DNA from: an uncultured virus (IMG/VR IMGVR_UViG_3300031760_000031)
Lineage: Duplodnaviria; Heunggongvirae; Uroviricota; Caudoviricetes
Virus record (IMG/VR): IMGVR_UViG_3300031760_000031
Strand: one strand, 5' to 3'
Length of the DNA: 20,000 nucleotides
The notes under the pieces are model-generated. The model saw only the letters and a program-made list of their open reading frames with translations, was not told the DNA's origin and searched no databases. Below, piece by piece: positions 3,661-18,345 of this stretch. The translations under genes were made by a program, and so were the position numbers. The stretch's first letter is position 1; the number at the start of each line of letters is the position of its first letter.

Positions 3661-5469
3661 TTAAATGCTGCTGGACTCAGAAGCAACCTTCAGAACGATT
3701 GCAGAATGAGGACGAACCAGAGCACCAGAGCAACGAGTTTCAATCAAATACTTCATCTTGTTGTAATCGATATCGAAATCGTCGAACAGAGATACTTCAC
3801 CACCCTTATTCATACCAACGTTGTAATCCTGCAGGTCAAGAGCTACTGCATAGACGTCTTCAGGCATAACGGTCGCAGGAACCTTAACGACTCTGTCAAC
3901 AGACATTGCGGAAGCGAGTTCGTTCATACCCTTATAAAGTCTCTGACCGATCTTGTCTTCCATTAACAGCATGTCAGAAACGATGTCGGTTCTGACAAAT
4001 GCAGTAACGTTACCAGAGCCCTGGTAATCATCAAGAGCCTTAACCATCTTGTTCTGAATAGCATGAGCTAAAGTCTCGGAGTCAGCAACAGTTACTTCAT
4101 AAGCCATAGCATACAGATTCTCTTCGGTATCCTTAACAACCGGAATGATGCACATTTCATCAATCTTATCTGCGTCCGGAGCTGTTCTTCCGTCACCAAA
4201 GATGTATGCGCGAGCTCTTTCTTCATCCAGCTTGATGCGCATTTCTTTCTTGATCCAAGCAACCATATCAATATCAGTAATGTCGATCTGATCATCACGA
4301 TCAAACTTCTGAAGCTTATAAATTGTAGTTGGATCTGCTTTTCTCTTTAAGAGCTTGAAGACTTCTTCAACTTTCTTAGTACCCTTAACATAACCTTTAG
4401 CCCTAGCTTCGGCCTGGGTAATATCTGCAAACATCATCTTAATCTTCGCAAATGGAGTCTTATGAACACCATTGTTAATAATATCAACCCATCCGTTTGG
4501 ATTGGTATTGACAAATGGAACTTCGTTGCCATGTACGTTCTTGTATTCAGGATACAGATAGTCTAAATTCGTCACACTGTGAACAAGAACTTCCTGCGGA
4601 TTTAAACCATGCTGTAAGAAAGCTTCCTTAACGGATCCATATCTCTTAGCATCCTGTAAAGCCGCGTATACTTCTTCTTCCATGCCATCATGCTGGAGAA
4701 CATCTTCGTTATCAAATGCGTTATGTTTCATTTCTTCATCCTCTTCTTCTTCATCGTTAGTGCCAGCAGAAGCAAGAGCTTCGCCGACTAAGTATTCACA
4801 AACTTTTCTCTGCTCAGGTGTCATACTATCAAGAACATCCTGCACAGTCATATCGTCTTTTTTATCAGCCATTTTGTCCTCTCCTTTATCTAATTCTTTT
4901 TCTTCTGAAGTATCTGCATGCTCAAGTGTCTCTGATTCTTTTTCTTCGCTAGTCTTTTCCGAATCTTCAACAATTTCGATAAAATCAGAATCATCACTAT
5001 GCTCAAGAACGAGATCTTCTCCTGTATAAATTTCAGCGCCAATAGCTACAGGATCTTCATCAGCGCTATGAGCCATAACATACTCAATGGATGCTCCTGG
5101 ATTTGCACCGGCAAGTACCAGGCTAACCTCACGGATAATACCATGCAAAACATCTCCATCAGCAGTTTGTTTCAATCCATTTGCATAAATTGACAAACTC
5201 CCAATATCTCCATGCTGCATAATAGTTTTGATCCTTTGAGATTTTGGAAGGTCATTAAAATAGCCATACGCTTTAACACCGGCATCCACATTCTTTAGAA
5301 CTGCGTGACCAAGCACATTATCCGGGTCGTTGTGCTGATGATTCCAGACTAGTGGAACCGTCATTCCGTCACAATCCTTAAAAGCGTTATGACGAATAGT
5401 CCTTCCATCGGAGCATTTCAAATCATTTTTCGTGGCCCAACCCCAAAAATCATAGTCTTTCTTAGCCAT
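3661..5469 (-). CDS. Prohead protease-scaffold-major capsid fusion protein (HK97-type)
   Basis: The N-terminal ~130 aa carry prohead-protease-like motifs (VPLVWNHQH, VLGHAVL, SLSIYAN, IREVSLVLAGANPGA). An acidic linker follows, then a ~300-aa capsid domain ending FDDFDIDYNKMKYLIETRCSGALVRPHSAIVL. Directly follows the portal. Confidence 0.88.
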   Translation of the reverse strand: MAKKDYDFWGWATKNDLKCSDGRTIRHNAFKDCDGMTVPLVWNHQHNDPDNVLGHAVLKNVDAGVKAYGYFNDLPKSQRIKTIMQHGDIGSLSIYANGLKQTADGDVLHGIIREVSLVLAGANPGASIEYVMAHSADEDPVAIGAEIYTGEDLVLEHSDDSDFIEIVEDSEKTSEEKESETLEHADTSEEKELDKGEDKMADKKDDMTVQDVLDSMTPEQRKVCEYLVGEALASAGTNDEEEEDEEMKHNAFDNEDVLQHDGMEEEVYAALQDAKRYGSVKEAFLQHGLNPQEVLVHSVTNLDYLYPEYKNVHGNEVPFVNTNPNGWVDIINNGVHKTPFAKIKMMFADITQAEARAKGYVKGTKKVEEVFKLLKRKADPTTIYKLQKFDRDDQIDITDIDMVAWIKKEMRIKLDEERARAYIFGDGRTAPDADKIDEMCIIPVVKDTEENLYAMAYEVTVADSETLAHAIQNKMVKALDDYQGSGNVTAFVRTDIVSDMLLMEDKIGQRLYKGMNELASAMSVDRVVKVPATVMPEDVYAVALDLQDYNVGMNKGGEVSLFDDFDIDYNKMKYLIETRCSGALVRPHSAIVLKVASESSSI

Positions 5470-5489: not shown

Positions 5490-6845
5490 TTAAATTTCAG
5501 ACAATTTCAATTCACTCAAGCTCTTATCTTCAACCGTTTCCGCTGTTAATTGATCTTCTTGAGGATTTGTATTTTCTCCCTCAGAAGGTACTTCACTCAT
5601 TTGATTCGCTTCGTTCGGATCAACAACGTTCGGGAACTGGCTTCCGTTTGACTGGTTAATGTTCTTGTTGCTAAGTTCATTAGCTCTAGGATCATCAACA
5701 GGCAACAATCCAACAACTTGTCTAAATTCATTCGAAGACATAATCTCATTACGAGTAAACTTATCTGCAAGTTCAGCAAGTTTAGATGTTGGAACAAGCT
5801 TGAATGGATCTCTAAAGAACGCTATTGATTGCTTTTGTGTTATTGCGGTCTTTGTAAGAAACTTTCGTCTCATTTCGTCTGCGATAGCCGAAACAATTGG
5901 CTCAACGGTCCGAGAATAATAGTTCATCATAGTCTGTTCATCTGCAGAACCATCTAAAATACCAGTAGTGATCCCTAACTGCCCGTATACGATGTTTGTC
6001 AGGTATTCAATACGTGCTAATAAATTGTTCTCCAAAGGACGATTCAACTGTGTGATTTTCTCTGTCGCATCAACATATGCAATACCGTATTTGCTTCCAG
6101 TAAGCTGCATTTCAATGTCTTTGCGACGCTGCTCAGCCTGTTGCCTCTTTGTTTCAGTTTTAACTAAATATGGAAGTTGGATAATCATATCTAACTTCCC
6201 AGATCCACTTTGTTCATCAACGACGTCCATCAACGTTAAAGTTCTGATAAGTCTCTGTAGCGTTGAGTTTGGTTCATTCATAATTGAATAAAGAGGATTT
6301 TCAACGATTGCAACGTTCTTCTTAGCAAACCAAATTTCTTGATGCCTACCAGTTCGATCGTTGTAAACGTTAATCTTTACATTGTCAGGCGCCCATTCTA
6401 TAATCTTCCCAACCCGTAAAGACTGTATATCAAAAGATCCCTTATCGGGATCAATTGATGTATCGATTGGAACAATCGCTATAGTTCCTTCATCAAACAT
6501 TGACATGACTGCATCTTGCATAAATGCCCTAGCAGTTTGGTCTTTGTTTGCAGAAATTGTTAAGCAATCGTTCAATGCCGAATCCATCTCGCTAATAAAG
6601 TACCCGTTTTTATCTAATTTCACATGCTTGAATTTAATCTGGGCAACGTCTAATGCGATTCGATTATAGATAGATGTGACTATCGTTCGTTCGTTACCTC
6701 GAGATAATCTATAGCGATATGGATTATATGATGAATAGGAAATATCAGTGCGATCATCATCGTATTTCCAATAATAATCCTGAGTTGGATCCCTATTCAT
6801 GAAGGCGTTCCATGCGTGGATTAGCCTATCGCTGAATTTTGGCAT
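5490..6845 (-). CDS. Portal protein
   Basis: 451 aa with IYNRIALDVA, ILDGSA and NEIMSSNEFRQVVGL (HK97-portal-like C-terminus). GGAGG RBS. Directly upstream of protease-capsid. Confidence 0.88.
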   Translation of the reverse strand: MPKFSDRLIHAWNAFMNRDPTQDYYWKYDDDRTDISYSSYNPYRYRLSRGNERTIVTSIYNRIALDVAQIKFKHVKLDKNGYFISEMDSALNDCLTISANKDQTARAFMQDAVMSMFDEGTIAIVPIDTSIDPDKGSFDIQSLRVGKIIEWAPDNVKINVYNDRTGRHQEIWFAKKNVAIVENPLYSIMNEPNSTLQRLIRTLTLMDVVDEQSGSGKLDMIIQLPYLVKTETKRQQAEQRRKDIEMQLTGSKYGIAYVDATEKITQLNRPLENNLLARIEYLTNIVYGQLGITTGILDGSADEQTMMNYYSRTVEPIVSAIADEMRRKFLTKTAITQKQSIAFFRDPFKLVPTSKLAELADKFTRNEIMSSNEFRQVVGLLPVDDPRANELSNKNINQSNGSQFPNVVDPNEANQMSEVPSEGENTNPQEDQLTAETVEDKSLSELKLSEI

Positions 6846-6859
6846 TAGAACTCAACCTC

Positions 6860-7516
6860 CTATCCTAGGTAATTCTTTACTGCATCTATAGATACATTCA
6901 TAGATTTTGCAATATCAGCATAGTTTTTACCTTCGTTTTTCATTTCTGTTGCGCGTTTTCTTTGCTTATCAGAAAGTCCTTTATTTCCGTTATTATTGTT
7001 ATTGTTATTCTTATTCTTATTGTTGTTATTATTGCTATTATTATTGTTATCGCCAATCATAGTATCTACCAATGCATTCATGAATTTCTTTCCTGCATCG
7101 GCAGCAGCTGGAACTACAACTTTCTCAACCATAAGGTTCATAAATTGTTCACCCTTAGAAATAGGCTTTGGATCAAGATTATTAACTTGATTTCGTATAT
7201 CAATGGCGTCTTTTTCAAGGCGCATTCTTTGAATGTACTTTTCAAGTTGTTTATCAGTCATCTGTTTGATGTCCTTATTTCTTGGAGACTTCATTTTACG
7301 AGCTTCGGCTGCAGCTTTTAATTGTTTAACTTTTTTATCATAAGCTTTTCTCTCGGCTCTACTTCTCTTGATATAGTTACCATTCTCATCAGTACGGTAA
7401 CGACGTTTACCCTCGGCGGTCAGAGTTCCATCCGGATTCTGAAAGCGCCTAACACCCCATTTCATATTTAGGATCCCGTAATGGTAAAGCTCGTCTTTGT
7501 TTAAAAAATACGCCAT
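6860..7516 (-). CDS. LxH-leader protein (HYG..MKWGVRR family) with poly-Asn linker and C-terminal HTH
   Basis: N-terminus DELYHYGILNMKWGVRRFQNPDGTLTAEGKRRY. C-terminus QRKRATEMKNEGKNYADIAKSMNVSIDAVKNYL has an HTH pattern. AGGAGG RBS. Confidence 0.8.
   Translation of the reverse strand: MAYFLNKDELYHYGILNMKWGVRRFQNPDGTLTAEGKRRYRTDENGNYIKRSRAERKAYDKKVKQLKAAAEARKMKSPRNKDIKQMTDKQLEKYIQRMRLEKDAIDIRNQVNNLDPKPISKGEQFMNLMVEKVVVPAAADAGKKFMNALVDTMIGDNNNNSNNNNNKNKNNNNNNNGNKGLSDKQRKRATEMKNEGKNYADIAKSMNVSIDAVKNYLG
6981..7050 (-). repeat. Imperfect (AAY)n coding microsatellite (poly-Asn tract)
   Basis: Encodes DNNNNSNNNNNKNKNNNNNNNGNK. Confidence 0.85.
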
Positions 7517-7550
7517 TTTGAAATCCTCCTATTCTACTTTTTTATGTTTT

Positions 7551-7670
7551 TCATTTTCTTTCAGTAAGAGTTCCGTCAGGATTCTGATAATGCTTAATAA
7601 TCCACTTCTGTCCTAAGATTCCGTGATGATAAAACTCATCATTATTTCTTTTTCGACTGTGATTTACCAT
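7551..7670 (-). CDS. 39-aa mini-ORF or remnant consisting almost only of the leader motif
   Basis: Manual translation: MVNHSRKRNNDEFYHHGILGQKWIIKHYQNPDGTLTERK*. ATG at 7670 (alternative 7676) with GGTGA upstream. Overlaps the 3' end of the neighbouring gene in another frame. Could be a pseudogene. Confidence 0.55.
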   Translation of the reverse strand: MVNHSRKRNNDEFYHHGILGQKWIIKHYQNPDGTLTERK

Positions 7671-8235
7671 ACGCATAATCACCGATATCAATTAACCCGT
7701 ACAACGCAACATCTGCCATGTTTGCAAAAATACCGGCAACCGCTGCACTAGCGCGATCGGCACCTTTTGCAGTCAGGTCGTCATATACTTTTGTTCCAAA
7801 ACCTCCTGCCAATGCGGACTTAAGGAACTGTTTACCAAGATGCTGAGTCTGGATTTTCTTATTTGTCTCTTTACTCTGCCAACTATAATTTGCCTCTGCT
7901 GCAGCAGTCCTAGCTTCACCCAATGTCTTTTTATAATCGCTCTTTAAAGACTTGCGCTCCTCATCGGTTTTGGCTTTCTTTTTCTTTTCTTTGTAAATTC
8001 CTTTAATTTCCTTTTTATCTTGCCTGTATCCCTTATTAAGATTTACAGCAAGTCTTTGACCTAATGATGTATTAGTTAATGCTCTACCAATATTGTTCAG
8101 AACTTTATCAGTTCTATAACGTTCTTTGCCTTCAGACGTTAATGTTCCATCTTGATTCTGAAAACGACGAATACCCCATTTCTGGCCCAATACACCGTAA
8201 TGCATTAATTCATCTTTGTTGAGATAGTAAGCCAT
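7642..8235 (-). CDS. LxH-leader protein (HYG..QKWGIRR family), Lys-rich
   Basis: Begins MAYYLNKDELMHYGVLGQKWGIRRFQNQDGTLTSEGKERY. The ATG at 8235 has a GGAGG RBS; the ORF track starts at 8250. Confidence 0.8.
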   Translation of the reverse strand: MAYYLNKDELMHYGVLGQKWGIRRFQNQDGTLTSEGKERYRTDKVLNNIGRALTNTSLGQRLAVNLNKGYRQDKKEIKGIYKEKKKKAKTDEERKSLKSDYKKTLGEARTAAAEANYSWQSKETNKKIQTQHLGKQFLKSALAGGFGTKVYDDLTAKGADRASAAVAGIFANMADVALYGLIDIGDYAYGKSQSKKK

Positions 8236-8249
8236 AATAATACCCTCCA

Positions 8250-8978
8250 TTATCTACGATCTTTTAACTTATTAGCGTCTTCAGTTGCGAACTTCTCTGG
8301 ATTATCCAAATATTGCCTATAAGCTTTTTGTAATTCTTTTCCGCCTTTATCAGCAACTTCTTTATTTTGAACAATCTCTAAGAAGTCAGTCGAATATCGA
8401 TTATATTTTCTTGCTGCGTCCATTTTGGAATTAATATCCTCTAGTTTTGTCTTATACTGTCCATTAATGAACTGAGCACCAGCATAAGTTGACTCCGGAG
8501 CGAACTTAGCGATCTTACGAGAGTATTTGTTGATCAACGACTGAGCTTTATGAATTTTAGCCTCATTCTTTGAAGTACTGTTTTGCATTTTTTCTGCCTT
8601 TGCAGAAAGTTTTCCTGCTTTAGCAGATAGCTTCTGAGACTTAATTTCTAATTTAGTTCTCTTCTTATCACTAATAAGCCAGCCATTAACGGCTTTGTTG
8701 TGTAGCTTAGCAGCTTTGTTCTGAAGTTTGTTTGCCTTAGCCAACTTCTTTTCTGCTCTGTAGTCTTTTCCAGCATTTCTATCGATACGCTTCTGATATT
8801 TATCGATCTTACGCTGCTGTTTATCGATTTTACCAACTAATTTCGCATACCGTTTTTTACCCTCTTCTGTCAGAGAGCCATCTTCATTTTGGTATCTACG
8901 AATACCCCATTTCATTCCTTTAATGCCAGAATGGTATAATTCATAATTACCGCAAGACGTCATATAAAATTCCTGCAT
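8250..8978 (-). CDS. LxH-leader protein (HSG..MKWGIRR family), basic coiled-coil
   Basis: ELYHSGIKGMKWGIRRYQNEDGSLTEEGKKRY followed by a K/A-rich helical region. GAGGAGG RBS. Confidence 0.8.
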   Translation of the reverse strand: MQEFYMTSCGNYELYHSGIKGMKWGIRRYQNEDGSLTEEGKKRYAKLVGKIDKQQRKIDKYQKRIDRNAGKDYRAEKKLAKANKLQNKAAKLHNKAVNGWLISDKKRTKLEIKSQKLSAKAGKLSAKAEKMQNSTSKNEAKIHKAQSLINKYSRKIAKFAPESTYAGAQFINGQYKTKLEDINSKMDAARKYNRYSTDFLEIVQNKEVADKGGKELQKAYRQYLDNPEKFATEDANKLKDRR

Positions 8979-8990
8979 GCATACCTCCTC

Positions 8991-9019
8991 AAATAAAAAA
9001 GTCTCTCTGACGGAGACTT
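8991..9019 (-). terminator. Rho-independent terminator after the toxin-immunity pair
   Basis: Minus-strand RNA reads AAGUCUC-CGUCAGA-GAGACUU-UUUUAUUU, starting at the stop codon of 9018..9281. Confidence 0.65.
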
Positions 9020-9281
9020 AACTGTTTGAATATAACTTAAGTTTTTCTTGTGGAATAATTTTTCCATTAATAAATTCTTTTCTAGAAATCATTAAAGGAA
9101 AAAATACGCAAACGCTTTTGTCTTTTTTATTAACACCTATCAAACTGTCATTAACATTCAAGTTTTCATGTAATCTATAGTCAAATACAAAATATGAATC
9201 ATATTCGATTCCGTTAACTATTTTCTTACCCTTAGCAGTTTTAAATTCCGATGCCAATTTAATTGCTTCTTTTAATTCCAT
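9018..9281 (-). CDS. Putative immunity protein for the upstream papain-fold toxin
   Basis: 87 aa with its own AAAGGAG RBS, 14 nt after the toxin stop. It is the only cassette gene without the LxH leader. The pattern (helix LKEAIKLA, E.DSYFVF, IGVNKKDKSV) is reminiscent of YrhB/Imm35-like immunity proteins. Confidence 0.55.
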   Translation of the reverse strand: MELKEAIKLASEFKTAKGKKIVNGIEYDSYFVFDYRLHENLNVNDSLIGVNKKDKSVCVFFPLMISRKEFINGKIIPQEKLKLYSNS

Positions 9282-9295
9282 ATTTTCTCCTTTAA

Positions 9296-11020
9296 CTATC
9301 TAAACTTCTTTGCATACTCTAAATCGTCTATCCAATCAGTCTCGATATGCTGATCTTCTAATACGCCTACAATATCTGGAATAATTCTCTCTAAATCGTC
9401 ATAAGTAACGTATGTAGACCATCCTCCAATTGGGTAAATCGGTTCATTACGCTTCAATTCCCCGGTTTTAATCTTTTCGGTGTAGTCATTATACATATTC
9501 ATATAAACCCAAGCAGCCTGTTCCATAAGGTCATTCTCGACTTTACCGCTATTAGCTATTTGAGCAGGACATGTAACATATGACATCCTAGATTTGTCGA
9601 TTTCCAAATTGTCAGTTCGCATTGTATAAATAGCACCACTATCAATGTCAATATCAGACATTTCTTTAGTGTAATTCTTATTTAGCGCTTGGCTTCTCGA
9701 AATGTACTCTTCAATATCAGCTTCATGATTTGAATTTCCAGAGTATTTTTCAGTAGGCTGAGTATCGATAAAATGAACTTCACCGTTTACGATCTCATAA
9801 TTGAAAATATGCCCACCATATGGATACCAACGGATTACTGTAAATCCACTTGAATCTTCGCCATTTGATTCAGCAAGTAGTTGCTTTTTAAGTTCGTCTG
9901 CTAATTGCTTAGACAATTGACGATCTTTTTTCTCGTCTACAAATGGTTCATAATTTTGGTCTAGAGAATTATAAATGTTTGAGAAATCAGTAGCAATGAA
10001 CTCGCCACCTTTATAAAAGCTTTCGATTTCTTCATTCGTCATCCCACCATAAATATCAGGAATTGCTTTAACATCAAGCCCTTTCAATCTTAAGTCGTAT
10101 GAAATTGAACATGAATAACAATTTGTCTGATAATAGGCATCTTCTTCATAGTTTGGATTAATCGTATCTCTATTTTGCTTTGGAGATAGTTTCTCTTTAA
10201 TTTGTCTAAATAAAGGCTCTTTCGTCTTTTGATCCGGCTTATTAGTAGGCTGATCGATTGTATCGACAGACTTTTTAGACAAATTTGAAATAAAATTCGA
10301 AATGTTTTTATAAACATCAGTTTTTCTAATGTCTCTTAATGCATGACGCGCTATTTTTGTAGCATGATAAGCAATAAATCTTAATGCTTTATCTGGTCCG
10401 ACAATAAGTCCTTCTGATTTTTTGTTATTATTTTTTGACAGATCACCGAATATGTTTCTAGCATTTACAAACTTGTCATGTCTTTCATTTGTTTCTGCTA
10501 ATCCTCTTTTTATAGAAGCTTTTGCATTCGTAACAAAAGTCGTAACTCGATCCTTTAAATTATTAACTTTGGAAATACTAGAAGCTACTTTATTTTGGAC
10601 TTTTTTACTCTTTTCTTTTGCTGTCTTTTTAACTGCAGTAAGGTTGACACTTAAATTCTTATTCTTACTAATAAAAGATTCAGCTTTTTTATAAAAATCA
10701 CTTACAGGTTTATTTGTTTCTTTCTTTGCTGACTCTTTTTTATTTATACCGCTTAAAAAGTTTCGTCCAAGCTGCTTATAGTCTGTTCTTCCGCCAAAGT
10801 TTTTGGCTGTAGAATTTAAAAAGTAGCCTAACGATTTAAATTTGTTGGCTACTTGTGATGCTTTCATATAAGTGTCATATTCTTTTTTTGTATAGAAATA
10901 CCTGTACTTAGGTTTCGAAGTCGACCCAAGATTTATTCGCTGATAGTATTTGTGTTTTTCTTTTTCAGCTCCTAATTTAAGGCCCCAGTGGTATAGCTCT
11001 TTACTTTTTAGATACTCCAT
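9296..11020 (-). CDS. LxH-leader protein with papain-fold (Tox-PL-like) Cys-His-Asp toxin domain
   Basis: Leader ELYHWG...HKYYQRI...KYRYFY and a long basic linker, then INPNY...TNCYSCSISYDLRLKGLDVKAIP (Cys 10118-10120), WYPYGGHIFNYEIVNGEVHFIDTQ (His 9809-9811, Asp 9764-9766) and RTDNLEID. Confidence 0.78.
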   Translation of the reverse strand: MEYLKSKELYHWGLKLGAEKEKHKYYQRINLGSTSKPKYRYFYTKKEYDTYMKASQVANKFKSLGYFLNSTAKNFGGRTDYKQLGRNFLSGINKKESAKKETNKPVSDFYKKAESFISKNKNLSVNLTAVKKTAKEKSKKVQNKVASSISKVNNLKDRVTTFVTNAKASIKRGLAETNERHDKFVNARNIFGDLSKNNNKKSEGLIVGPDKALRFIAYHATKIARHALRDIRKTDVYKNISNFISNLSKKSVDTIDQPTNKPDQKTKEPLFRQIKEKLSPKQNRDTINPNYEEDAYYQTNCYSCSISYDLRLKGLDVKAIPDIYGGMTNEEIESFYKGGEFIATDFSNIYNSLDQNYEPFVDEKKDRQLSKQLADELKKQLLAESNGEDSSGFTVIRWYPYGGHIFNYEIVNGEVHFIDTQPTEKYSGNSNHEADIEEYISRSQALNKNYTKEMSDIDIDSGAIYTMRTDNLEIDKSRMSYVTCPAQIANSGKVENDLMEQAAWVYMNMYNDYTEKIKTGELKRNEPIYPIGGWSTYVTYDDLERIIPDIVGVLEDQHIETDWIDDLEYAKKFR

Positions 11021-11032
11021 TTTGATAATCTC

Positions 11033-11467
11033 CTATCCTAAAGTAGTAGTATGACTAGTAACCTTAATACGACTCTTCTTTGACTTTTTCTTCTTTGATA
11101 GCTTTTGAATAAAACTAGCTCCTTTTGAAGCTGCTCTTTCAACGCCACGTTCAATCTTTCCTTTTGTCTTAAATACAGTAACTGAGCCATCGCTCGATTT
11201 AACCTGGATTTTATTTGAAAGCCAACTGTTACCATTACTAGTAACTTCTTTGTATCTAGTAATACCGCCGTTTCTTTCAACTTTTACATATTCTTTTGTT
11301 GTTGGACGCAAATCAGTAGTTGGAGTTCTAAACTGATTCGTCATTCCTTTGTAAATATAAATCCACTTACCATTTCTCAAAAATTTGTCAATATATTTAT
11401 GATTGGTCCATGAAGAACCTTTAGCCGCATGGGCTAATTCTTTTGATCTATATAATTCATATCCCAT
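11033..11467 (-). CDS. LxH-leader basic protein (HKY...GKWIYIY type)
   Basis: SKELAHAAKGSSWTNHKYIDKFLRNGKWIYIY shares its leader type with the toxin gene (SKELYH...HKY...YRYFY). AGGAGG RBS. Confidence 0.75.
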   Translation of the reverse strand: MGYELYRSKELAHAAKGSSWTNHKYIDKFLRNGKWIYIYKGMTNQFRTPTTDLRPTTKEYVKVERNGGITRYKEVTSNGNSWLSNKIQVKSSDGSVTVFKTKGKIERGVERAASKGASFIQKLSKKKKSKKSRIKVTSHTTTLG

Positions 11468-11506
11468 AGTGGCCTCCTGTTATATAATGTTATAGAGGTG
11501 AATAAT

Positions 11507-11827
11507 ATGAAAATTGCTCAGATTTACTGTCCTAGTTGTGGTGGTTCAATTAAAGGTGACTTAACAAAAGATAGTGTAATCTGTCCTTTTTGTGGAACGC
11601 AGCTTGCTATCGATCATGAAAAGAAAGAAATTACTATAAACCAGAATATTAATAAGAATATTTCTATTAGTAAGAATCAAACAAAACGAATAATTGATGA
11701 AGCTGAAATAATTCGTGCAAAAACAGAAAATACAAAAGCAAAATCAAATGCAATCTCTGAAATAGCAGCAATTATAGCCTTACTAATCATAATTCTGTTG
11801 TCATTTTTAATGTCGATTATAGCTTAA
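11507..11827 (+). CDS. Zn-ribbon protein with C-terminal transmembrane helix (moron-like, opposite strand)
   Basis: Contains CPSCGG and CPFCG knuckles and a C-terminal IAAIIALLIIILLSFLMSIIA. GAGGTG RBS precedes ATG 11507 (the track starts at GTG 11498). TATAAT at 11483-11488. Fills the gap between terL and the cassette without overlap. Confidence 0.75.
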   Translation: MKIAQIYCPSCGGSIKGDLTKDSVICPFCGTQLAIDHEKKEITINQNINKNISISKNQTKRIIDEAEIIRAKTENTKAKSNAISEIAAIIALLIIILLSFLMSIIA

Positions 11828-11832
11828 TATAT

Positions 11833-13596
11833 TTAAAAACTATCCTTATTATGCTTAAACGCTACAAACGCATCCAGCATGGCTGCGACACAGTCTATCT
11901 TCTGTTCTGAACGTTTCTTATAGAGTTTACGATTTCCGTTCGTATCTTCTAGAGTAATACAATTACCCATGGCGAAATTCATGATTTGCTCGTCAAATAA
12001 CAAAAGTCTCTCTTCAGAGAGCTTTTTTAATTCTCCTAATGGAACCGATTCTGTTCTAGCACCCTGAATTACTTTCTCTACACCAAAAGGTCCTCGTTCT
12101 GTTGCCCAACGTTCTACAAATTCTTTTGCATTATATGGGTCATAACCAAAGCAATTTACATCATACTGATGCATATCGATAAACCGATCAAGATCCTCAT
12201 AGACATTCATCATATCGAGGATCGCTCCGTCCATTACAACAAGACTTCCTTCACGGATAAACTCATCGTATTTGCTCTTTAAAGCAGAAGGTAATTTCTG
12301 ATAAGTAAAAGCGCTGATATAGTTTCTTGTCTTAATGCCAAAAGATCCACCACGTAGAGGGAACATGAAAGTAAATGCACAAAAGTCATCCCCTTGAGAT
12401 AAATCACCACCCATAGCGCATTGCATTTTGTCGAATGACCGATATGGATGCGTCAGCGTTTCCTCATATGGGAAGTAATAAGTATAACCTTCAAGCGGAA
12501 TACCAAATCTCTTTGCAAGAATATCATTCCTATTTGCCGGAGATTTCTCAGCTCTTTCCTTGTCTAATTGATAAGTCTCATAGCTAACCGTGATTCCTAT
12601 GTTTGGATTTGCTTTAACCCACATAGCTGGGTTTTCTACTTCCTCGATCGAATCTAAACGATAATACCAAATCGATACTCTTGGGTTTATATAGTCACCC
12701 TTAAGTATGTCAATAAGCTCCATTTTGATTGTGTCGCCAGGACCATTACGAACTGTGCCCTCTGAAGAAGTCGCCACGATCAAATAGTCATTTACCTCTT
12801 CAATACCACCTTGCTCCTTAGTACAAGACTGCTCTATTGCACCAATAACGTCTTCCCTGGTATCACCAGAGAGCCATTCATCGACAGTAGCAATCTTAAC
12901 TCGATAACCCTGAAGCTTGTCTCGGCTCATTGGTTTGACTTCGATTGTGGATCCAGTAATAAAGTTCTGAATACCCTTCTTGGTAGAGGCTAGCTTAACT
13001 CGATCTGCTCGATTACCTGTTGTGTTTTGAAGTGAACCATATGTCATAAATTTAAACATAGGTCCTTTAGATCTGTTAATTGCTGTTCGTAATGGCGAAA
13101 GTACTTCATCCGCTTGAGCCATTGTTGGAGCTGTGACTGTTTGTCCATTTGAACTACGATCACAAATTAAAAAATATGCTTGCAAGAATGCAGCATACAT
13201 TGATTTTGCGGCGCCTCTGGCAATAATTAAAAATTGCTTTGTGATTAACCGTTTTTTAAACATTTTATTAACATAATGCCCACCTCGACCATTTGGATCT
13301 GGGATGTATACACTACGTTCAATAAAGTAATACCATCCGAAGATTTCTTCCGCCCAAAGTTTAAATGATTCAAGCATTTTCACATCGCCGCCATTAGTGA
13401 GAGTTAACTCATTCTCGCAAAAAGCGACAAAACCATTCATTGCATCTTTGTCGTAATAAACTCCGGGGTTTTTAATAAGCTCATCAATACGGTTCATTTC
13501 CATAGCGATGTACTTATTAATTGGTGTCTCTCCTCTCATTACAGATTCTCTAAACTGGCCGTAATATATCGGTACGGCAGTATTAGATAGTGACAT
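11833..13596 (-). CDS. terL: Terminase large subunit
   Basis: 587 aa with Walker A IARGAAKS, Walker B IATVDE, WVKANPNIG, nuclease motif GGDLSQGDDF, GYDPYNA and C-terminal KIDCVAAMLDA. Confidence 0.93.
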   Translation of the reverse strand: MSLSNTAVPIYYGQFRESVMRGETPINKYIAMEMNRIDELIKNPGVYYDKDAMNGFVAFCENELTLTNGGDVKMLESFKLWAEEIFGWYYFIERSVYIPDPNGRGGHYVNKMFKKRLITKQFLIIARGAAKSMYAAFLQAYFLICDRSSNGQTVTAPTMAQADEVLSPLRTAINRSKGPMFKFMTYGSLQNTTGNRADRVKLASTKKGIQNFITGSTIEVKPMSRDKLQGYRVKIATVDEWLSGDTREDVIGAIEQSCTKEQGGIEEVNDYLIVATSSEGTVRNGPGDTIKMELIDILKGDYINPRVSIWYYRLDSIEEVENPAMWVKANPNIGITVSYETYQLDKERAEKSPANRNDILAKRFGIPLEGYTYYFPYEETLTHPYRSFDKMQCAMGGDLSQGDDFCAFTFMFPLRGGSFGIKTRNYISAFTYQKLPSALKSKYDEFIREGSLVVMDGAILDMMNVYEDLDRFIDMHQYDVNCFGYDPYNAKEFVERWATERGPFGVEKVIQGARTESVPLGELKKLSEERLLLFDEQIMNFAMGNCITLEDTNGNRKLYKKRSEQKIDCVAAMLDAFVAFKHNKDSF

Positions 13597-15363: not shown

Positions 15364-18345
15364 TTACTCATTTCCTTTTAATGCTTTTGAAATTGTACTA
15401 GCAGACATTCCTAATGCTGCAGCAATTTCTGCGTTTGTTTTTCCGCTTTGAGACATTGCTTTAGCTCTACTTATCATTGCTGGTGTCATTGTTTTTCTTG
15501 AACTCGGAGTAGCTCTATCCCTTAGTGCATCCGTATCCGTATGGTCCAGAACTTTTCTTAAAGTGTTTGCATGGATCGCACCAGCCTGAATTGCTTCCCA
15601 CATTTTATCCGTGATTACAATCTCATTCCTCTGAGCCCCTACTCTCGTCCGGGCCTTAGTCAACTCTACCTGTCTAAGTTTCTTCTTGTCTTCCTTCTTT
15701 ATTGATGGATTACTTTGAACCTTAGCTTTAAATTCTAGTGTTGCGATAACTTGAGCTTGTCTTTCTCTAGGCTTATTTTTTGTGGAGAGGTCCAGTTGGT
15801 TCTGTATCTCTGTTACCTCTTTAGCATAGGTTTTTGCTGCTTTACTACTATACTCTATGCCTTTGGTATCATAACTTAATTTTCTTGCCTGATTAGCCAT
15901 CGCCTTCATAGTATTTGCATAGGAGGCATATAGTTGTTCCATTGGACTGTTGTAATCTGAGATAAGAGTTCTTGCATCATCTGTTTCTGCCATCTTGGTC
16001 GATTGCGTTTTACGAACTTTCTCAACTACAGTAGTTACACCGGTTTTCTTATTGGTTTTTTCAACAGTGTAATAAGCTTTTGGATCAGTCTTATAAAGCA
16101 ATGCACCTTCTGGCTTTGTTGGATCATAATCAGAACGACCTTTAATATTAATTCTTGGTTGTCCTTTTCTCCTTGGCACATCTTCTTCCGATTTAGCCAT
16201 TGAGATCAACGTAGATGCGCCCATTGATTCTTTGCCGTCTTTTGTTATATGAAGCTGGTATTTTCTTTTGAGCTTTTCAATCTCGTTTTGTGCATAACTA
16301 GACTGGTAATCAAGTTTATGCTTTTCAGCATCAATAACAACCATTGAATGGCGAACTGCTTGCGCAAGTTCATCTTCGCTGGCACCTTTAATTGTCATGT
16401 CTGAGATCAAGTTAGAAATTCTACCCATTTCATTCTGAGTGTTCTTCATAACTTTAAATTCAAGACCTGCTTTATTAAAGTAATGCTTATCACCATTTTT
16501 ATCTTCGTAAGTCTTACTTGGATCACAACCATATTTTTCTTTTGGATCAAATCCTTCAAGACCCTTTAATGATTTGCCATTGTTGTTCTTAATCCTTATA
16601 GTGCTGTTTGTTGGAATAACCATAACTGTATCGCCATCAAAATCAGCTCCAGAAAGTTTTTCCGCAACAGATGCATTAATGCCAACAGCATCTCTAGAAT
16701 TCTTTCCAATCATGGCAATGCCATCTTTTTGCTTATTGTTAACAGTTAAAATTGGAATTTCAAATTGGCCACCATGAGGATAACGAACTAAAGCAACTTG
16801 CTCACCATCTTTATAATTTGGAGCATAAATTTCGTTATTTTTCATTGATGGTATTGGAAGAATTACCTGAAATTTTTGTCTTGGTAGAGCAGCAGCGGTT
16901 AAATGAACTGCAGATGAATCACAGTCGCTGGCAAAAGAGTCAAGATAGTATTTCTTGATTGTATTATTCTCAAGGCTCATAATATCTTTTAGCTCTTGCT
17001 GCTTTTCAAGAATGGCTAAATTTAACTGTCTCTTAGCAAGCTGTACGCTTTGTTTTGATAAGAACTGCGCAGAAAGAGTATCCTTCCAGTTGTCCCAGTC
17101 ACCTTCATCCGCTCTTCGATTTAAAAGATTCAGATGCCGATTTCCATCCTTATCATAATAGTAAGTTTGTCCACCTTGCTCTTTATCTTTTATTAACGAA
17201 CCAAACGGATTATCGCGGTCAATTTCTTTTGTAATTTTATCTCTCTTTACGTCTTTTAATACTTCAAGTTTAGGAACATCTCTATGTTTATTGGTATTAA
17301 ATATAACGTCTATACCAGGAGGAAATGAGCTTTGATCAATGGCATAAGCAGCCATACCCTTGATATATTTTTCGTCATCAACAAGAATCCTTACTTGAGC
17401 ATAATTCTTTTCACCAAGAGAGAGATCCGGTACATTCCTACGGAGTTCTATCAAACCATCTTTATCTTTTCCACCATCTTCAGCATAACGAATCATTAGC
17501 CTACTCGAATCCATAGATTCTGGATATTCGAATTTCTTCTTAAAACCATCAATACCATTGTTGATGGCTTCATAATCCTTTATTGCCTTTATATGTTCGT
17601 AAGTATAAAAATCTTTCCAAGTAGCATCAGGCATAGCTACAACATTCATTGTTGTCTGTCTTGATCCGCTTGGATCTGTAATGTTAGGAACTCTTCCTCC
17701 AAACGTTTTATAACCTTCACCTTCAAGAATATAAACTGCATCGTCAAGTTTAGTTCTTGTAACATTAAGTTCTGTTTCTACGCCAGGACCAATATCAATC
17801 ATAGCCTTTGGATCATCTTTGGCTAGTTCGTTAAGGCGCTCTTTTAAAAAATCGGCGGTCTTTAAAGTTACTTCAATATTTGCTTTTCTTGATGGATTTA
17901 ATAACGATCTAACACTAGACTCATTTTGTAAACCCATCTTTCTAGCAATCTCAGAAGGACCATAACCAGCATCTCGAAGTGCTTCTGCACGATTAATCTT
18001 ATCCATTCTATCGAGATTTGAAGCAAGAGTAATTGCATGACGATATTCTGTAGTAGACATTTTTAATATCTTTGCTACAGCTGTCTCACCTTTAAATGTT
18101 TTACCATAATCCGGATTCTTGATCTTTTCGCCATTCTTAATAATGTATTCTTCATTATCTGTGTAAGTTGGTTTCTGTTTTCTTAACTGCGCTACAAAAG
18201 AGAGAAAGTCTCCAGAATGTTGAAATGGTGAATCTCCAGATCCCCAAGGATATCTTCCAGAACCAGGAGTTCCTTTAATATGGTCTGTTCCATAATGCAT
18301 TAAAAAATCGTCAAGTGACGGTTTCTCATTAATCATAAATATCAA
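15364..18345 (-). CDS. Single-subunit two-barrel (DPBB) RNA polymerase, QDE-1/YonO-like, with N- and C-terminal HTH motifs
   Basis: Catalytic-type LSGADFDGDTVMV (DFDGD at 16630-16644), upstream ALVRYPH and YAQVRI...YIKGMA (compare QIR..KG, RNP and DxDGD in cellular RdRP-family enzymes), and downstream MGRISN and VIDAEKH. Start is TTG 18345 or ATG 18336. Confidence 0.8.
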   Translation of the reverse strand: MIFMINEKPSLDDFLMHYGTDHIKGTPGSGRYPWGSGDSPFQHSGDFLSFVAQLRKQKPTYTDNEEYIIKNGEKIKNPDYGKTFKGETAVAKILKMSTTEYRHAITLASNLDRMDKINRAEALRDAGYGPSEIARKMGLQNESSVRSLLNPSRKANIEVTLKTADFLKERLNELAKDDPKAMIDIGPGVETELNVTRTKLDDAVYILEGEGYKTFGGRVPNITDPSGSRQTTMNVVAMPDATWKDFYTYEHIKAIKDYEAINNGIDGFKKKFEYPESMDSSRLMIRYAEDGGKDKDGLIELRRNVPDLSLGEKNYAQVRILVDDEKYIKGMAAYAIDQSSFPPGIDVIFNTNKHRDVPKLEVLKDVKRDKITKEIDRDNPFGSLIKDKEQGGQTYYYDKDGNRHLNLLNRRADEGDWDNWKDTLSAQFLSKQSVQLAKRQLNLAILEKQQELKDIMSLENNTIKKYYLDSFASDCDSSAVHLTAAALPRQKFQVILPIPSMKNNEIYAPNYKDGEQVALVRYPHGGQFEIPILTVNNKQKDGIAMIGKNSRDAVGINASVAEKLSGADFDGDTVMVIPTNSTIRIKNNNGKSLKGLEGFDPKEKYGCDPSKTYEDKNGDKHYFNKAGLEFKVMKNTQNEMGRISNLISDMTIKGASEDELAQAVRHSMVVIDAEKHKLDYQSSYAQNEIEKLKRKYQLHITKDGKESMGASTLISMAKSEEDVPRRKGQPRINIKGRSDYDPTKPEGALLYKTDPKAYYTVEKTNKKTGVTTVVEKVRKTQSTKMAETDDARTLISDYNSPMEQLYASYANTMKAMANQARKLSYDTKGIEYSSKAAKTYAKEVTEIQNQLDLSTKNKPRERQAQVIATLEFKAKVQSNPSIKKEDKKKLRQVELTKARTRVGAQRNEIVITDKMWEAIQAGAIHANTLRKVLDHTDTDALRDRATPSSRKTMTPAMISRAKAMSQSGKTNAEIAAALGMSASTISKALKGNE

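Follow-up and report, generated by a model that had tools for sequence, protein, structure and literature searches.

The window analyzed here is a stretch of 20,000 nucleotides from an uncultured virus of the Caudoviricetes (IMG/VR record IMGVR_UViG_3300031760_000031), which forms the end of a viral contig of 80,664 bases with an estimated completeness of 96%. Between the genes of the large terminase subunit (terL) and the portal lies a cassette of mostly basic proteins (6860-11467) that open with one of two short conserved leaders, called here tags of class A and class B. The gene order on the minus strand is an RNA polymerase-like gene, a gene resembling that of the small terminase subunit (terS-like), an HNH gene, a connector, terL, the cassette, the portal, a protease-capsid fusion and tail genes (Table 1). 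TerL has 68-69% identity to those of FP_oengus, Streptomyces cluster BI phages and Rhodococcus phage ReqiPepy6, and the phage is, by its sequence, a relative of Lactococcus phage 1706, FP_oengus and cluster BI. Beyond the possible source, bovine gut metagenomes were among the best-matching sequencing runs. We consider it likely that the tagged proteins are internal cargo of the head, bearing a retained peptide tag behind a maturation site specific for histidine.

Table 1. Features of the window and tagged enzymes of related phages
Feature	Position	Strand	Basis and remarks
RNA polymerase-like protein, single-chain, 993 amino acids (aa)	15364-18345	-	phrog_4291; class C tag at start; intact DxDGD motif (568)
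terL	11833-13596	-	PF20441; upstream boundary of cassette; untagged; motif in 2 of 47 terL N-termini
Class B tagged basic protein, 144 aa	11033-11467	-	Class B profile match; payload cluster of 5
Class B tagged protein with papain-fold toxin 1 domain, 574 aa	9296-11020	-	PF15644, 33.1 bits (cut-off 24.1), residues 299-421
Untagged 87-aa protein, predicted papain-fold inhibitor (immunity)	9018-9281	-	Position after papain gene; predicted complex
Class A tagged Lys-rich protein, 242 aa	8250-8978	-	PF23847, 26.7 bits
Class A tagged basic protein, 197 aa	7642-8235	-	PF23847, 24.4 bits; payload cluster of 7
Leader-only class A remnant	7551-7691	-	phrog_32444, E 1.4e-9; overlaps end of upstream gene
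Class A (DUF7211) tagged basic protein, 218 aa	6860-7516	-	PF23847, 27.9 bits (cut-off 27)
Portal	5490-6845	-	PF04860; Leu-x-His-Ala at residues 8-11
Prohead protease-spacer-major capsid fusion	3661-5469	-	TIGR01543, E 3e-7 (below cut-off); TIGR01554, 28.2 bits
Tagged enzymes of relatives	L047 10645-12273; L016 6018-6965; L106 3561-4493; L012 140-712		2H phosphoesterase (ReqiPepy6 gp013), two ADP-ribosyltransferases, GNAT

A sequence-only reading of this DNA had described a polymorphic cassette in which two conserved leaders are fused to unrelated, very lysine-rich C-termini. Both leader classes lie where it placed them, and all the open reading frames (ORFs) run on the minus strand between terL and portal. 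Three of its four class A genes are full genes, while the fourth, drawn as 7551-7670, is a leader-only remnant with a stop codon immediately 3' of the tag and no ribosome-binding site. It is probably a pseudogene, and no convincing slippery site was found for frameshift read-through into it. The gene for the 197-aa protein starts with the ATG at 8235, which has a ribosome-binding site; the ORF finder had put the start at 8250. The C-termini are unrelated to each other within the window, but all five full-length payloads have relatives in other phages. Four of these payloads have an isoelectric point (pI) of 9.9-10.7, and that of the 574-aa protein is 8.4; the median for 71 other ORFs of the genome is 5.3. 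The 218-aa protein has a weak C-terminal helix-turn-helix (HTH_38, E 1.8e-4, below cut-off). It also contains an Asn-rich low-complexity tract (6990-7050), which draws unrelated contigs in the read comparison. Missing from the earlier account were the papain-fold domain with the untagged 87-aa gene, the hydrophobic-x-His start that the leaders share with the RNA polymerase, the portal and the capsid spacer, and the division of the cassette into conserved and polymorphic parts.

The class A leaders belong to PF23847 (DUF7211), as had been suggested in the sequence-only reading. This family is a domain of unknown function, described by a profile of 25 positions with membership at 27 bits or more. 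A six-frame search of the 80.7-kb genome with PF23847 returned three class A genes above the cut-off and a weak match at the start of the RNA polymerase; apart from the latter, the family does not cover classes B and C. None of 26 class B members had a Pfam match better than E 0.02. A common origin of classes A and B beyond the His site was unsupported (hhalign probability 29%), and class A aligned with class C at a probability of 95%, but over 12 columns only. Compared pairwise, the four class A leaders have proportions of synonymous differences (pS) of 0.62-0.92 and of nonsynonymous differences (pN) of 0.21-0.29. The earlier claim of selection at the protein level is borne out: the class A tags are under purifying selection, with the peptide kept and synonymous sites near saturation, which rules out a recent duplication of the leaders as DNA.

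Relatives were collected as 45 loci fetched by portal, the best 80 of 166 by terL, and three GenBank phages; L numbers denote these and other contigs compared. Profiles were built for class A, class B and a third class, C, first found on the RNA polymerase. They match 285 ORFs, all on the sense strand. Every one of the 83 contigs that span HNH/terS to portal (duplicates merged; 43 groups at <90% terL identity) carries 1-8 tagged genes besides the polymerase, and no tagged gene was found outside the span from polymerase to capsid in 936 kb. The leaders are therefore linked to the head module in relatives, where they stand anywhere from terS/HNH to the capsid gene; a position between terL and portal holds for the window. 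Some ordinary cassette genes (L011, L104) have a class C tag too, and as many as four tags can stand in one protein. A search with the class B profile gave 308 proteins at E <=0.1, and among the top 120 the first match begins within 30 residues of the N-terminus in 119, with PF15644 present in 7. Further head-module leaders with hydrophobic-x-His lie outside classes A-C (L032 11289-12077, L071 7469-8131, L085 6198-7007, L017 1518-2711 and L101 5006-5485), which suggests more tag classes. In L111 and L120 the class C tag stands not in the polymerase frame but in a small ORF of its own before it, which would reflect either a frameshift or an assembly error. We found no mention of the term DUF7211 in the literature searched, and neither the tags nor a phage protease specific for His were described there; subscription papers and supplements lay outside the coverage.

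The 231 unique tagged proteins fall into 89 payload clusters with a median pI of 9.9. The largest and most widespread, with 55 members, includes the 218-aa protein (6860-7516), and the cassette is polymorphic in part and in part a conserved core. In all eight comparisons with homologous genes of relatives the leader was more conserved than the payload (69-97% against 26-71% identity). Within the window, 8218-8453 is replaced by 78 other letters (joint 8217-8454) in contigs from three of the four runs compared; these contigs come from three studies and have long pieces 97-99% identical to the window, and the fourth run has the form of the window. The replaced stretch comprises the last ~67 codons of 8250-8978 and the junction, and ends six codons into the next leader. 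Payload ends are therefore exchanged even among near-identical strains. With the clusters, this swap and a papain domain that is found with tag A, tag B or no tag, the proposed array of constant tags and variable payloads is well founded, and invariant payloads are excluded.

Enzyme domains were found among 130 scanned representatives: papain fold in six, ADP-ribosyltransferase in two, GNAT in one and 2H phosphoesterase in one; most of the others have only the tag. Enzyme classes such as these have been described as head-packaged effectors (PMC9503650, PMC5512222), and the tagged 2H, ADP-ribosyltransferase and GNAT enzymes are candidates for injected anti-defence or host-takeover enzymes. The main rival to the cargo reading holds that the tagged proteins are packaged and cut, but serve mainly as auxiliary scaffold or DNA-condensing core proteins, degraded or kept in the empty head, and that only an occasional enzyme fusion is ejected. 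We regard this as unlikely. It has the loading and cutting steps in common with our reading, and a pI above 9 in 88% of 227 payloads, mostly without Pfam domains, agrees with it, as do the presence of at least one tagged gene in every spanning contig and a single family of 55 of the 231 proteins, as expected of a core part. A passive core is harder to reconcile with a gene number that varies from 1 to 8, with 89 payload clusters and swaps between near-identical strains, and with tags on catalytic domains, RNA polymerase included.

One cassette enzyme could be characterized further. The 574-aa protein belongs to PF15644 (Tox-PL1) both by the profile and by the catalytic NC, H and D residues described for that family (PMC3482391): N300-C301, His404, Asp419 and Gln421 are invariant in nine of nine aligned papain-fold domains. 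It contains an intact papain-fold toxin domain, which would act as a peptidase or deamidase. No relative of the whole protein was confirmed among viral contigs. A gene of 71-87 aa lies directly 3' of 20 of 21 papain matches (12 distinct contigs; the 21 include duplicate fetches), and the untagged copies of the domain are proteins of 330-334 aa. Between the window and L027, terL is 88% and the leader 78% identical, against 28% for the enzyme core and 26% for the partner; with L006 the values are 50% for the core and 52% for the partner. Identities of enzyme and partner are correlated over 11 pairs (rho 0.59, p 0.0006).

The 87-aa partner is predicted to fold with a mean local confidence (pLDDT) of 93. 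It was rejected as a member of Imm35, the immunity family described for Tox-PL1, as none of seven partner proteins matched Imm35 at E up to 10 and there was no Pfam match. In the ESM Atlas it retrieved only unnamed viral clusters (0.88-0.89). With Foldseek there were no matches at E 0.001 or better; an 'Immunity protein' ranked second at E 0.015, a mere lead. The predicted complex of enzyme and partner scores 0.86 and the best control 0.42; 116 of 157 solved pairs and 2 of 215 mismatched ones reach the mark used, figures that are approximate for the alignments made here. The runs agree in at least 97% of contacts, the partner has a pLDDT of at least 90, and the predicted interface includes the catalytic Cys and His. 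This model supports the 87-aa protein as an inhibitor, or immunity protein, covering the active site of the papain domain. A terminator-like hairpin (9019-8999, minus strand) lies directly 3' of the partner gene, and a promoter-like site (9996-9968, minus strand, 10 of 12 positions) lies inside the papain gene; together they could allow separate expression of the partner. Promoter-like sites do not exceed those in shuffles (18 against 21.4), and the hairpin was not evident after the partner genes of 12 relatives.

This arrangement resembles the MuF polymorphic toxins of temperate phages, which include MuF-Tox-PL1 fusions (PMC3482391, PMC12226406). Like the cassette, these combine a constant N-terminus, an exchangeable toxin domain and a small downstream partner gene, and they too have carrier-less toxin-partner cassettes and a location in the head module (PMC3482391). 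An exchangeable C-terminal toxin, an adjacent gene with a predicted immunity function and carrier-less cassettes are all found here. The MuF domain itself was found neither in the cassette proteins of the window nor in 130 tagged relatives; the carrier is instead a peptide of <45 residues, most payloads are not toxins, and the partner has no match to Imm35. Another explanation takes the cassette as a set of host-directed accessory (moron) genes for the lysogen or for lysis. The leader would then be an export signal or a handle for recombination, and the papain gene and its partner would form a toxin-antitoxin pair apart from the virion. An integrase-like ORF is present in the genome (judged by eye, from its start), untagged papain-partner pairs exist, the partner gene is followed by the hairpin, and one breakpoint of the swap falls within a leader. 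Nevertheless, we give this explanation very little credence: leaders conserved as protein with saturated synonymous sites would make a poor DNA handle, tagged genes are also present in 1706, described as virulent, and in ReqiPepy6, and the tags are restricted to the head module and, in other lineages, fused to portal and protease.

Evidence for the head as destination comes from a motif that the tags share with head proteins. Tags of classes A, B and C all begin with hydrophobic-x-His, and Leu is the commonest residue at position -2 of the His (125 of 160 in class A, 20 of 25 in B and 16 of 18 in C). The spacer of the capsid precursor in the window (about 4573-5085) has six hydrophobic-x-His-[SAGN] sites, compared with 0.35 in shuffles, and the last of them abuts the shell domain. 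Among 30 precursors <80% identical to each other, a hydrophobic residue precedes the His at -2 in 179 of 195 cases in the spacer (background 20%) and in 33 of 118 in the shell domain, and the full motif fits 158 of 195 and 3 of 118, respectively; the last spacer site coincides with the conserved shell start. Pooled over 41 spacers there are 221 such His sites against 14.5 in shuffles, and a Glu version of the motif is at chance level (60 against 62.8). In the protease domain, 76 of 175 His are in such sites; as homologous positions of an alignment, they do not count independently. Within the N-terminal 35 aa, 30 of 53 portals and 10 of 11 RNA polymerases have the motif, but only 2 of 47 TerL proteins, 1 of 46 connectors and none of 44 terS-like proteins do. 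A search of solved structures with the capsid precursor gave no match.

T4 gp21 and SPN3US gp245 each use one motif to cut the capsid, the scaffold and internal proteins, and in SPN3US the portal too (PMC9958956, PMC5694885). By comparison with these enzymes, the sharing seen here is what a maturation protease site should show, and the cut would fall after the His. In GenBank EU081845 the label 'structural protein' is given to orf7 of phage 1706, which has two class A tags and a class B-like segment (E 0.0017), and to orf75, a homologue of the polymerase that has tag C and is 36% identical to the 993-aa protein. The earlier proposal of internal or ejected proteins is supported indirectly by these labels, which reportedly come from virion mass spectrometry, and by the site in common with the capsid spacer. 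The papain domain was considered as a general protease for the His sites and rejected, because it occurs in 12 distinct contigs only, compared with tags in all 83, and because a predicted inhibitor accompanies it.

A comparison across lineages, made with one exact class A pattern, gives a further view of the site. The form with His occurs in about 2,300 IMG/VR stretches (estimate). Forms without His were found in 21 stretches with 22 matches, of which 15 have Glu, 4 Asp and 3 other residues. The class A core after Lys or Arg gave no exact-pattern match in viral contigs, and so strict a pattern leaves such forms possible. A single Glu-type contig has capsid genes. Its head protease/scaffold begins with the tag and has 12 hydrophobic-x-Glu-[SAGN] sites against 4.8 (p 0.006), and two Leu-Arg-Glu sites, against 0.1 (p 0.0045), lie at the N-terminus of its capsid protein. 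The tag is fused to the C-terminus of the portal in two Glu-type contigs and one Asp-type contig, and two of three Glu-type portals are enriched for Glu sites. Among the Asp-type contigs only one has a capsid gene, and there too the N-terminus of the capsid fits (2 against 0.22, p 0.01). The excess of His is absent from the head proteins of the Glu and Asp lineages, and the excess of Glu from the spacers of the His lineage. This small sample supports the first part of the leader as a protease site. It also shows that the conserved tag follows this site, in contrast to the targeting peptide of T4. The Glu- and Asp-type phages also have other repeated leaders beside the class A tag (small ORFs near the portal in L153 and L163; L154, L156); several ORFs of L153 have one common start, and L154 and L156 have Asp-Gly-Gly-Pro-Gly starts.

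The same residue exchange bears on another explanation, in which the His motif is not cut but binds metal or nucleic acid or serves self-association, the tags being small folded modules that gather proteins at the site of packaging or assembly. The nearly invariant His, the up to four copies of the tag per protein, and the second His and predicted beta-hairpin of class B (the hairpin is predicted within the tag of the 144-aa protein, 11033-11467) would all suit such modules. Two observations are difficult to explain in this way: other lineages have Glu or Asp in place of the His, and where this can be tested the same residue mostly recurs in their head proteins; and the last spacer site lies exactly at the start of the shell domain. 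We judge the explanation improbable.

Several points weigh against internal cargo cut after His. Because the tag profiles were built from sequences at these loci, the counts of tag presence are partly circular, a problem that applies less, if at all, to the absence outside the module. The limits of the spacer and the [SAGN] class were chosen after inspection of the window's own sequence, and the residue after the His is mostly S, A, G or N in the spacer but mostly H or Y in class A and C tags. The site is lacking in 23 of 53 portals, and a loose motif stands early in 10 of 53 major tail proteins and 5 of 48 HNH proteins. The test with Glu and Asp rests on few contigs, one with capsid and protease each; two of the matches without His may instead be His sites displaced by one residue, one Glu-type portal is not enriched (p 0.17), and neither is the Asp-type scaffold (p 0.59). 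For most payloads no domain could be recognised, and many may be structural fillers rather than effectors. The co-variation of the papain-fold enzyme and its partner is also expected from shared descent as a linked pair.

Among the closest known parallels to head cargo of this kind is T4, where IPI-III and Alt have a capsid-targeting sequence that is processed by the prohead protease gp21; as proposed for the window, a short N-terminal signal stands on dispensable internal proteins (PMC9958956, PMC5694885). In T4 one protease site is common to scaffold, capsid and cargo, a property that our phage has as a sequence motif only. The cargo of T4 includes an ADP-ribosyltransferase, an enzyme class also found among the tagged proteins of the window's relatives. 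In T4 the removed part is the targeting piece of ~10 residues, while here the residues before the His are short and variable and the conserved 15-35 residues follow the predicted cut and would be kept. The phages with these tags also differ in having internal and tandem tags and a predicted site that ends in His, and the window phage is an HK97-type siphophage with a protease-capsid fusion. The cassette would work like the T4 internal proteins and the MuF toxins and fits neither definition in full.

Other features of the region lie beside this system. Certain actinobacteriophages, Lactococcus 1706-like phages and FP_oengus have been described as a supercluster with the polymerase as group signature, and its gene order and YonO-like RNA polymerase are the same as in the window phage; the passages of that account on the group do not mention tags, the His motif or packaging of the polymerase (bioRxiv 10.1101/842583). 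Between terL and the cassette, on the opposite strand, is a gene for a zinc-ribbon protein of 109 aa with a C-terminal hydrophobic segment (11498-11827, plus strand), the 3' part of which is divergent at many sites among near-identical strains. It is possibly a membrane protein expressed in the lysogen. Close relatives with terL 88-91% identical have an untagged block of six genes between cassette and portal (L004 7379-9973, L006 7382-9975 and L027 7381-9983); two of these genes were searched in the genome of the window and gave no match.

In the mechanism that we propose, the leader would be a two-part signal, composed of a hydrophobic-x-His site cut by the phage's own prohead protease and a retained basic, aromatic tag (A, B or C) that likely brings the protein into the prohead. 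The tagged proteins would join the prohead alongside the scaffold-like spacer and the portal, and are likely to be trimmed once loaded. The protease would cut after the His in spacer, portal and cargo, removing an N-terminal piece of 5-25 residues or splitting polyproteins with several tags. The freed basic proteins would remain with the DNA and are probably injected with it; at least the enzymes (RNA polymerase and papain-fold enzyme, and ADP-ribosyltransferase, GNAT and 2H in relatives) would probably enter the next cell. In the lysogen or the cell that makes the phage, the 87-aa protein would probably block the papain-fold enzyme; as it has no tag, it would stay unpackaged.

A broader proposal, which we make tentatively and with somewhat less than even expectation, is that the tags of DUF7211 and of classes B and C are portable signals for head loading and ejection that survive maturation and have moved between unrelated lineages, the site being re-tuned to the local prohead protease (His, Glu or Asp). 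They would then serve a polymorphic effector system addressed by peptides, through which an ordinary siphophage head delivers a virion RNA polymerase and enzymes of the toxin-immunity type, with a protease that cuts after histidine. If true, this would assign a function to an unnamed motif that is very common in phages, present in one exact form in the IMG/VR stretches counted above, and predicts a His-specific maturation protease and a tag of <40 residues that loads proteins into siphophage heads. A simple sequence rule would also list the non-DNA head contents of a large group of gut, dairy and soil phages, among them candidate anti-defence enzymes, toxins and a likely virion RNA polymerase.

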